From NCBI RefSeq assembly GCF_001457615.1, contig NZ_LN831024.1, positions 900,001-932,000 on the forward strand: a stretch of DNA of 32,000 bases. Reading direction: 5' to 3'. Source of the stretch: Pseudomonas aeruginosa (GTDB lineage Bacteria; Pseudomonadota; Gammaproteobacteria; Pseudomonadales; Pseudomonadaceae). The notes below the pieces were generated by a model, which did no database searches, was not told the DNA's origin, and saw nothing but the letters and a program-made list of their open reading frames with translations. Shown here in pieces: positions 1 to 1,505 of this stretch. Both the position numbers and the translations under genes were made by a program. Every line of letters starts with the position of its first letter. Position 1 is the stretch's first letter.

Positions 1-1
1 C

Positions 2-757
2 GGCGCGGTGGACTTCCTCGAATGCGCGCCGGACAACTGGATCGGCGTCGGCGGTGCCTTCGGTGCCGACCTGGAGCGCCTGGTGGAGCGCTTTCCACTG
101 ACCTGCCACGGTCTCTCGCTGTCCCTCGGCGGCTCCACACCGCTGGATGCCGCCTTCATCGAGCAGACCCGACGCTTCCTCGTCCGCCACCGGGTCGCGT
201 TGTACAGCGAGCACCTCAGTTACTGTTCCGACGATGGCCATCTCTATGATCTGTTGCCGCTGCCGTTCACCGAGGCCGCGGTGCGTCACGTCGCGGCGCG
301 CATCCGCGAGGCGCAGGAACGCCTGGAGCGGCGCATCGCGGTGGAGAACATTTCCTACTATGCAGCGCCGTACCGGGAGATGAGCGAGATCGAGTTCGTC
401 AACGCGGTACTCGACGAGGCCGACTGCGACCTGTTGCTGGACGTCAACAACCTGTTCGTCAACGCCTGCAACCACGGCTACGACGCCCTCGACTTCCTCG
501 CCCGGCTGCCGCCCGGGCGGGTCGCCGTCTACCATGTGGCGGGGCACTACGACGAGGCGCCGGACCTGAAGATCGACACCCATGGTGCCGCCGTGAAGCC
601 CGGCGTCTGGGCCTTGCTTGGAGCCGCCTATCGTCGCTTCGGCGTGCGCCCGACCCTGCTCGAGCGGGACTTCAACTATCCGCCGCTGGGCGAACTGCTG
701 CTGGAAGTGGAGCAGATCCGCCAATGGCAACGCGACGAGGGACGCCGTCATGGATGA
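2..757 (+). CDS. DUF692-family multinuclear non-haem iron oxidase (MNIO; MbnB/HvfB/BufB-like), 5'-truncated by the window edge
   Basis: The frame is open from the first bases of the window to TGA at 755-757. The track 'start' at 8 is only an in-frame GTG. The translation carries the DUF692 ligand-bearing motifs [46 protein letters not shown] and LLERDFN. The stop overlaps the ATG of the next gene (ATGGATGA). Confidence 0.85.
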
Positions 758-1505
758 GCGCCTGCGCCAACAGCAGTTCAGCCTCGCCCGGCACCTGCGC
801 GACCCGCTTGGCAATGCGCCGCCGCCGGACATCGAAGAACGTCGCCTGCGGGTCTACCGCGAGCTGTTCTACAACGCCATCGAAGGCCTCCTTGCCAGCG
901 GCTTCCCGCGCTTGCGCGGGCTGCTTGGCGAGCAGCAGTGGCATGGCCTGGTGCGCGAGTTCTATCGCGAGGAGAGAAGCCATACCCCCCTGTTCACCCG
1001 TATCGCCGGGGTCTTCGTCGACTACCTGCGGCAGCGGGGCGAGTATCGGCCGGCGTGGCAAGCCGAGTTGGCCCACTTCGAATGGAGCGAAACGCGCCTC
1101 TACCTGGCCGAGCCCGACGATCCGCCGTATCGGCGTGAAGGCGACCTGCTCGACGGGGTGCCGCTGCTGTCGAGCCTGGCGCTGCCGCTGGGCTATCGCT
1201 GGCCGGTGCATCGGCTCGAAGAGGACGTCGCGCTCGCCGAAGCGCCTGCGGAACCGACCCTGCTGTTGATGCACCGCGATTCCTCGCATCGCGTGCATAC
1301 CGCGCGCCTGACTCCGCTGGCCTACCGCCTGCTGGAGTCGCTGGCGAGACGGCGCCTGAGAGGGCGCGAGCACCTGGCGGCGCTGGCGCTCGAGGCGCGG
1401 AGTGCGCCCGGAGCGCTCGACGCGGCGGGGCTGGAGTTGCTGGCAGCGTTGCGGACCCAGGGTGTCGTGCTCGGAACCCTGGAACGCGATTGGGCGGGCG
1501 GATGA
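750..1505 (+). CDS. DUF2063-family protein (MNIO partner subunit, HvfC/BufC-like)
   Basis: ATG at 750 lies in-frame inside track ORF 618..1505 and overlaps the upstream stop by 8 nt. The N-terminus [19 protein letters not shown]...[17 protein letters not shown] is typical of DUF2063. The ORF upstream of 750 is just the overlap with the DUF692 gene in another frame. Confidence 0.8.

Follow-up and report, generated by a model that had tools for sequence, protein, structure and literature searches.

A probable HvfA-HvfB-HvfC-type maturation operon around the calcium-binding protein EfhP of Pseudomonas aeruginosa

What is the substrate of the iron enzyme and partner protein encoded side by side at the left edge of a 32,000-nt stretch of the Pseudomonas aeruginosa chromosome (contig NZ_LN831024.1, positions 900,001 to 932,000, hereafter the window)? 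The pair consists of an MNIO (DUF692) enzyme, PA4106 or HvfB, and a DUF2063 protein, PA4105 or HvfC, and the gene before them lies beyond the first letter of the window. [quoted passage not shown] By sequence, and by analogy with studied relatives, PA4106 and PA4105 would modify EfhP (PA4107) itself, converting four of its cysteines into copper-binding rings.

The stretch is P. aeruginosa DNA: over 11.5 kb it matches, without gaps and at 99.75% identity, a P. aeruginosa chromosome that was found by an exact match to the HvfC product. Read in frame 2, it encodes all but the first 25 codons of a 276-aa HvfB-family MNIO, these codons lying off the window edge. The fragment matched Pfam PF05114 (MbnB_TglH_ChrH) at E = 3e-95, across profile positions 21-262 of 263, and passed the NCBIfam equivalog NF003818 (cutoff 360) with 392.5 bits, or 411.3 bits for the full-length protein of a related genome (L001). 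By contrast, PA4106 stays below the BufB equivalog NF050167 (248.9 and 258.6 bits, cutoff 310), the MbnB model TIGR04159 (34-35 bits, cutoff 325) and the NCBIfam cutoffs for ApyH and ChrH. Its closest solved structure is PDB 3BWW, a diiron DUF692 protein of Histophilus somni (E = 2.6e-72), and it matches TglH at E = 8.9e-12. An earlier note, made from the sequence alone, had likened the pair to MbnBC, TglHI, HvfBC and BufBC alike; the pairing of enzyme and partner stands, and the NCBIfam cutoffs narrow it to HvfB/HvfC, to the exclusion of BufB and MbnB.

The active site of the enzyme appears intact. With the full nine-ligand list of MbnB as a model, we assigned putative ligands to H61 (107-109), H96 (212-214), E140 (344-346), D172 (440-442), N175 (449-451), H203 (533-535), D217 (575-577), H219 (581-583) and E246 (662-664). 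The motifs HG, S-E-H, V-E-N, D-V-N-N, H-V-A-G, D-T-H and E-R-D are all retained in alignment with 3BWW, and the claim that the partial open reading frame (ORF) keeps every iron-ligand motif of DUF692, LLERD included, is borne out by its 251-residue translation as well as by the profile hidden Markov model matches that the note had proposed as a check. Mutagenesis has shown the site-3 ligands N175, D242 and H244 to be essential in Haemophilus influenzae HvfB (bioRxiv 10.64898/2026.07.17.739211), and PA4106 keeps a counterpart of each, namely the second Asn in DVNN and the Asp and His in DTHG. The window allele carries valine at position 201 (527-529, GTC), two residues ahead of the YHVAGH ligand His; alanine (GCC) stands there in each of the 8 P. 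aeruginosa genomes compared. This change is probably neutral because the position is not conserved in 3BWW.

The second gene encodes a protein that matched PF09836 (DUF2063, 1.6e-23), the same profile check that had been suggested for it, as well as PF22106 (NGO1945_C/HvfC_C, 3.7e-19) and NCBIfam NF050145 (RiPP_RRE_HvfC; 251.8 bits, cutoff 142), with a weak match to PDB 3DEE (NGO1945, 5e-5). The Pfam E-values of both proteins lie far outside what chance would give. Its start codon (ATG, 750-752) lies before the hvfB stop (TGA, 755-757), and the resulting 8-nt overlap ATGGATGA, which the note had described, can be read directly from the sequence. A ATGNNTGA overlap also joins hvfB to hvfC in a Cupriavidus locus and in two other Pseudomonas loci (L005, L006, L007), and we infer that the two genes are translationally coupled. 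PA4106 and PA4105 have been shown to form a complex by co-immunoprecipitation and pull-down, and they resemble TglH and TglI, respectively, by Foldseek (PMC11445079); HvfC is required for the mixed-valent diiron state of HvfB (bioRxiv 10.64898/2026.07.17.739211). Because equivalog-level matches and these published interaction and structural data agree, we regard membership in the HvfB/HvfC family as settled.

The predicted substrate gene was located in other genomes. In all 8 cassette-bearing P. aeruginosa loci that we compared, from genomes 99.4-99.8% identical to the window and reached via HvfC and OprB-like porin matches, a co-oriented efhP gene (155 or 160 aa) ends 74 nt before hvfB; it is placed beside the window by this synteny, and none of the 8 carries the A201V allele of the window's HvfB. 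The common 155-aa allele (L001:8636-9103) reads MSVFDSRQKTSASLLGAVLVGGMLLGGSAFA/VEPLGQGLQVAAASAGEGKCGEGKCGSGGSAKTPAKAGAEGKCGEGKCGDASFARTDTDHDGKVSRAEF...DSDHDGFISEAE..., and its N-terminal half comprises a Sec signal, judged by eye (n-region R7/K9, h-region 14-27, AFA/V), followed by AGEGKCGEGKCG and AEGKCGEGKCG, giving two doublets with 4 Cys ahead of two EF-hands. EfhP passes the HvfA-family domain model NF050137 (KCGExKCG_twice; 32.4 bits, cutoff 19.5) and scores above the gathering thresholds of Pfam EF-hand_1, _5, _6 and _7, with two stretches each; a Pfam search gave no DUF2282 match. The last EGKCG doublet directly adjoins EF-hand loop 1. Aligning 17 homologues (62-72% identity to EfhP) revealed an invariant AFA signal end, PLxQGY, the EGKCG doublets, the GDASF...TD junction into EF-hand 1 and both EF-hand loops, with variation in the linkers and in the number of doublets.

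The note had placed the substrate gene immediately to the left and named an EF-hand or secreted protein gene there in PAO1, and both statements fit: that gene is efhP, with a Sec signal and conserved Cys. Its view that such a substrate would be atypical fares less well. Only the fused EF-hand pair is unusual; the EGKCG core is typical, because the protein joins a Sec signal to AEGKCGEGKCG, the motif that HvfBC modifies in H. influenzae. Judged by its sequence, then, EfhP is a fusion of a canonical HvfA/oxazolin core with a calcium-binding domain. Three loci of other species (Cupriavidus and two further Pseudomonas) likewise place an EGKCG/EF-hand gene directly before hvfB and hvfC, with a DoxX gene nearby, and the order precursor-B-C is strict in 11/11 loci that carry the genes. 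A six-frame scan of the 32 kb for GKCG, EGKC, KCGE and CxxC-repeat peptides found no EGKCG-type or other Cys-repeat ORF, in agreement with the earlier reading that the window holds no precursor; the scan's only match was rejected as a candidate because it lies in a non-coding frame antisense to bfmS.

Several further observations concern efhP. Residues 30-44 (AFA/VEPLxQGYQLAAA) are near-invariant in Pseudomonas and Cupriavidus homologues although predicted to be unstructured, and this segment is a candidate recognition sequence for the RiPP recognition element (RRE) domain of HvfC. Alleles of EfhP differ by whole EGKCG units, at 127 aa (1 Cys), 132 and 145 aa (2), 150 aa (3), 155 aa (4) and 160 aa (5) (L001:8636-9103; L010/L011:19004-19486; proteins P0004, P0008, P0015, P0017 and P0021). 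The four-unit form of 155 aa is dominant, at more than 2,600 contigs counted, and the three-unit form of 150 aa is found on 325 contigs. These alleles look like slippage or recombination among 15-nt repeats, and each unit gained or lost would change the number of modifiable cysteines. The gap between efhP and hvfB contains a strong GC-rich hairpin (L001:9118-9161; -39.7 kcal/mol, z = -3.75, stability matched by 0/200 shuffles), with GUUUCC after it. Inspection by eye shows GC-rich inverted repeats in the same gap of the Cupriavidus locus and the two other Pseudomonas loci. As an attenuator or mRNA-stabilizing element, the hairpin may set a high ratio of precursor to enzyme.

Homology to HvfABC, FonABC and the Neisseria gonorrhoeae system suggests how maturation would proceed. 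HvfC would recruit the precursor in the cytoplasm and allow HvfB to reach its active Fe(II)/Fe(III) state; HvfB would then use O2 to turn every one of the four cysteines in the EGKCG motifs into a 5-thiooxazole in a four-electron step, with a predicted mass change of -4 Da at each Cys, or -16 Da for all four, and an absorbance expected near 302-305 nm. EfhP would next be exported by Sec and cleaved after AFA31, and in the periplasm its disordered thiooxazole segment would bind Cu(I) while the EF-hand pair binds Ca2+. Published work provides the models for these steps: HvfBC modifies the cysteines of AEGKCGEGKCG at -4 Da each (PMC11252979), FonBC needs at least two consecutive EGKCG repeats in its substrate (PMC13097082), and two groups have reassigned the HvfABC-family product to 5-thiooxazole (PMC13097082; bioRxiv 10.64898/2026.06.05.730506). 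The oxidative rewriting of Cys into metal-binding heterocycles that the note had foreseen remains the expected chemistry, with the ring now predicted to be a 5-thiooxazole in place of an oxazolone/thioamide.

A number of points weigh against modification of EfhP by its neighbors. EfhP lies outside the window and is placed there from the synteny of other genomes; it scores far under the strict HvfA equivalog NF050188 (24 bits, cutoff 95), it has two doublets only, and the N-terminal disulphide region, an aid to recognition of HvfA in H. influenzae, is missing. All EfhP biochemistry has been done on E. coli protein made without PA4106 and PA4105, yet this unmodified recombinant protein binds Ca2+ (dissociation constant, 13.7 uM) and changes conformation (PMC9132961). 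A search of the literature library for EfhP/PA4107 together with copper, thiooxazole or MNIO turned up no published test of whether EfhP is modified or binds copper. Manley et al. expected DoxX proteins, of which HvfX is one, to play no part in biosynthesis, and the roles given to HvfX and PA4103 below are guesses. A cadmium paper that names PA4103-PA4107 provides no test, as it reproduces a STRING cluster only.

We weighed these points together with three other accounts of the locus. In one, EfhP is only a calcium sensor, its EGKCG cysteines remain free thiols for Fe or Cu sensing or for Fe-S binding, and PA4106 and PA4105 act elsewhere or are idle. The four EGKCG repeats did not escape the EfhP laboratory, which put forward dual sensing of Ca and Fe but neither a modification nor a link to the neighboring enzymes (PMC11559002), a proposal that sits well with Ca2+ binding by the unmodified protein and with the Cu(I) binding of unmodified HvfA (PMC11252979). 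We nevertheless consider free thiols unlikely because none of the 11 loci departs from the synteny, the EGKCG doublets do not vary and the active site is intact, with all iron ligands kept; moreover, efhP and hvfBC share a transcript and are induced together (PMC4148453, PMC8025907), there is no further Cys-repeat ORF close by, and each MNIO-PME1 system tested to date modifies its adjacent EGKCG peptide (PMC13097082).

It is a good deal less probable still that the enzymes modify EfhP but yield a methanobactin-like oxazolone/thioamide. This was the original assignment for HvfA (PMC11252979), it survives in NCBIfam and UniRef names, and the two products have an equal mass change; however, HvfA has since been reassigned, both by that laboratory and by a second, independent group, on the basis of alkylation, nuclear magnetic resonance and comparison with methanobactin (bioRxiv 10.64898/2026.06.05.730506; PMC13097082), and PA4106 reaches just 34 bits on the MbnB model against its cutoff of 325. 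An older annotation makes PA4105 a DNA-binding transcription factor and PA4106 a sugar-isomerase-like enzyme unrelated to EfhP, and draws on the PF09836 description line ("putative DNA-binding domain"), a 2014 description of the two genes (PMC4053335) and the title of PDB 3DEE ("putative regulatory protein"). Against the equivalog-level matches to HvfC and HvfB, the physical PA4105-PA4106 complex with its Foldseek similarity to TglI/TglH (PMC11445079) and an operon regulation that BfmR already explains (PMC4148453), this "regulator plus isomerase" annotation is obsolete and effectively refuted. Modification of EfhP by PA4106 and PA4105 is the account that we retain.

Expression of the operon is tied to a two-component system encoded in the window, BfmRS, whose regulator BfmR has Response_reg (1.7e-31) and Trans_reg_C (1.9e-22) domains. 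The genes pa4107-pa4106-pa4105 and pa4103-pa4104 form operons, and BfmR directly activates both, that is, efhP-hvfBC and PA4103-hvfX (PMC4148453, PMC8025907). Electrophoretic mobility-shift assays, footprinting, chromatin immunoprecipitation sequencing and RNA sequencing have ranked the two operons and bfmRS above all other BfmR targets, efhP being the gene activated most of all (PMC4148453, PMC8025907). The published non-canonical footprint motif is GATACAnnAC (PMC4148453). The 32 kb contain 4 matches to GATACANNRC, against 0.7 expected by chance, and each lies in either the PA4103 promoter (3032-3041) or the bfmR promoter (the other three), in keeping with the BfmR footprints already published; GATACATAAC upstream of the PA4103-like gene is a BfmR-type motif, and a further BfmR box lies upstream of efhP in a related genome. 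PA4100, a GMC oxidoreductase gene, is likewise induced in a bfmS deletion strain (PMC4148453), where induction of the efhP operon exceeds 10,000-fold. The earlier note ended at position 1505, and its hvfBC part holds up, but it overlooked hvfX, the PA4103-like gene, bfmS and bfmR on the opposite strand of the window (Table 1).

Table 1. Coordinates of the maturation genes, their regulators and associated elements in the window
Feature	Position	Strand	Description
hvfB (PA4106)	2..757	+	MNIO / DUF692 iron enzyme, residues 26-276; PF05114, NF003818
hvfB/hvfC overlap ATGGATGA	750..757	+	hvfC start codon inside hvfB end; translational coupling inferred
hvfC (PA4105)	750..1505	+	251 aa; DUF2063 N-domain and RRE-type C-domain; PF09836, PF22106, NF050145
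REP-like palindromic elements, two copies	1519-1589 and 1626-1696	.	Period 107 nt; spacer between convergent genes
13-bp perfect inverted repeat GAAAAACCCCGGA / TCCGGGGTTTTTC	1705..1741	.	Terminator-like hairpin between hvfC (+) and hvfX (-)
hvfX (PA4104)	1758..2267	-	169-aa DoxX-family membrane protein; PF07681, NF050144
PA4103-like	2299..2928	-	209-aa membrane protein; first gene of PA4103-hvfX operon
BfmR box TACAGAGCGATACATAAC	3032..3049	-	Upstream of PA4103; equals published motif GATACAnnAC
bfmS (PA4102)	3058..4362	-	434-aa sensor histidine kinase; HAMP, HisKA, HATPase_c
bfmR (PA4101)	4359..5099	-	246-aa OmpR-type response regulator; 4-nt overlap with bfmS
Three canonical BfmR boxes GATACAnnGC	5134-5143, 5179-5188, 5309-5318	-	bfmR / DUF2790 divergent promoter region
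DUF2790 protein	5456-5716	+	86 aa; signal peptide, two Cys; divergent from bfmR

HvfX matched PF07681 (DoxX) at 1.3e-22 and the HvfX family model NF050144 with 152.2 bits (cutoff 80). The hvfX gene runs on the opposite strand, convergent with hvfBC, which sets it apart from its counterparts in H. influenzae and Cupriavidus. The PA4103-like protein gave only a weak match to NCBIfam MsrQ (31.6 bits, cutoff 130) and no ferric-reductase Pfam match even at E ≤ 5, while PF01794 is present in homologues at ~70% identity, which are annotated as ferric reductase-like transmembrane proteins. From this weak match and these annotated homologues, its sequence appears to resemble the ferric-reductase / MsrQ (YedZ) transmembrane family, and both the operon and pfam01794 are stated for PA4103 in PMC4148453. 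More speculatively, HvfX and the ferric-reductase-like PA4103 might supply a membrane redox or copper-handling function.

The spacer between hvfC and hvfX holds REP-like units that are 85% identical, with a 71-nt core and a period of 107 nt, and four other strains (L002, L004, L008, L012) have exactly one unit fewer. These elements are a spacer and not part of the mechanism. The 13-bp stem beside them has a run of A before it and a run of T after it, read directly in the sequence, and looks like a two-way terminator between hvfC and hvfX; the consensus terminator scan could not list this hairpin, as its 11-nt loop exceeds the limit of the scan. A consensus promoter scan of 1400-3200 found no sigma-70-like site, and the terminator matches in that interval were uninformative. 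An Rfam scan of the 32 kb at the gathering threshold found no RNA family. From 5717 to 32000 the window is ordinary P. aeruginosa chromosome, with the GMC oxidoreductase (PA4100), an OprB-like porin, dehydrogenases and a major facilitator superfamily transporter.

The whole neighborhood can be missing. Among P. aeruginosa genomes whose OprB-like porin is identical, some lack the 6.36-kb block DUF2790-bfmR-bfmS-PA4103-hvfX-hvfC-hvfB-efhP and carry in its place a 1.9-kb cassette of a short-chain dehydrogenase (SDR) gene and a LysR gene (L009 and L013, compared with L012:13098-19458). This replacement was seen at 2 of the 6 places among the matches listed, with 11 more similar places beyond the list, out of 86 contigs read. 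The block spans window position 1 to ~5758 and extends ~710 nt to the left of the window; one breakpoint falls within the GMC oxidoreductase gene, 42 nt from its 3′ end, and the other ~94 nt upstream of efhP, and the flank beyond (an HD-GYP gene) is only 93% identical. The LysR protein of the replacement cassette has no close relative in species-representative genomes, where the best match, from a Luteibacter metagenome-assembled genome, is at 63%. The gene for the DUF2790 protein adjoins a homologous two-component system in a locus of the P. putida group (L006) and is lost together with the cassette, and its product is possibly another member of the module. Because the entire block is swapped at once in some strains, the data suggest that BfmR and its three main target operons are inherited as one unit.

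These findings lead to a broader proposal that we put forward tentatively and regard as somewhat doubtful. EfhP would be a two-metal periplasmic protein in which thiooxazoles made by HvfBC bind Cu(I) beside Ca2+-switching EF-hands; the published efhP phenotypes (virulence, H2O2 resistance and iron-uptake regulation) would depend on the modification and on copper; BfmRS, gained and lost with the genes as a single 6.4-kb cassette, would in essence sense the metal or redox stress to which the system responds; and copper capacity would be tuned by how many EGKCG units (1 to 5) a strain carries.

The finding itself is already known (PMC12452194, PMC11252979, PMC11445079, PMC4148453). Manley et al. 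(2024) report the hvf operon as conserved in P. aeruginosa, a 2025 survey of MNIO systems names EfhP a Buf_EGKCG/EF-hand chimaera (PMC12452194), and NCBI and UniRef label P. aeruginosa EfhP an "HvfA family oxazolone/thioamide-modified RiPP metallophore." Because the idea is in print, the value of the locus is a ready experiment and not a discovery. Work on EfhP has treated it as the sole calcium sensor of the EF-hand type in P. aeruginosa, and BfmRS has been investigated as a switch for chronic infection that induces efhP more than any other target. If EfhP is modified, the native protein differs chemically from the one that has been characterized, and some of what EfhP and the BfmRS regulon do may have to do with copper or redox stress, not just with calcium.

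Among known systems, methanobactin (MbnABC) and 3-thiaglutamate (TglHI) biosynthesis share the MNIO TIM-barrel superfamily (PF05114) and an obligate partner subunit with the P. aeruginosa locus, but they are distant (34 bits against 325 on the MbnB model; 8.9e-12 for TglH). Their partner family differs, their precursors are of the leader-peptide type without a Sec signal, and their chemistry is oxazolone/thioamide formation and beta-carbon excision, respectively. The bufferins (BufABC(D), with DUF2282 or Buf2 precursors; PMC11626156) belong to a sister MNIO clade with a DUF2063-RRE partner, Sec export, DoxX, thiooxazole and periplasmic copper buffering; PA4106 falls below the BufB cutoff (249-259 bits against 310), and EfhP is neither DUF2282 nor Buf2. 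In the "captophorin" MNIO-PME1 clusters of fontiphorin (FonABC) and gonophorin, EGKCG motifs become 5-thiooxazoles, and the two-repeat minimal substrate is present twice in EfhP (PMC13097082). These clusters yield Cu-binding products with links to stress responses (PMC13097082), but their precursors are repeat-only peptides (7 sites in FonA) that have no folded Ca2+-binding domain.

Closer still is HvfABC(X)/oxazolin of nontypeable H. influenzae (NTHI1440-1444), which has the same MNIO equivalog family, a DUF2063/RRE partner, a precursor with Sec signal and AEGKCGEGKCG, a DoxX gene and the order precursor-MNIO-partner; the H. somni protein of 3BWW is said in the Rosenzweig preprint to be 72% identical to HvfB. 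The P. aeruginosa system differs in having 2 doublets in place of 3, in lacking the N-terminal Cys38-Cys43 disulphide region and in the C-terminal two-EF-hand Ca2+ domain of EfhP, a fusion that makes the product a 12-13 kDa protein and not a short peptide. Its hvfX lies on the opposite strand in an operon of its own, behind a ferric-reductase-like gene, and the adjacent two-component system BfmRS controls all of these genes. The Buf_EGKCG/EF-hand chimaera class was defined in a survey that is bioinformatic only and does not include BfmRS control, EGKCG copy-number alleles or cassette replacement (PMC12452194). It describes a short EGKCG domain with a hydrophobic helix before it and two EF-hand_5 domains after it, encoded beside MNIO, DUF2063, DoxX and sometimes ferric-reductase genes (PMC12452194). 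Between this class and the locus described here there is no structural difference, and EfhP of P. aeruginosa is its cited example.

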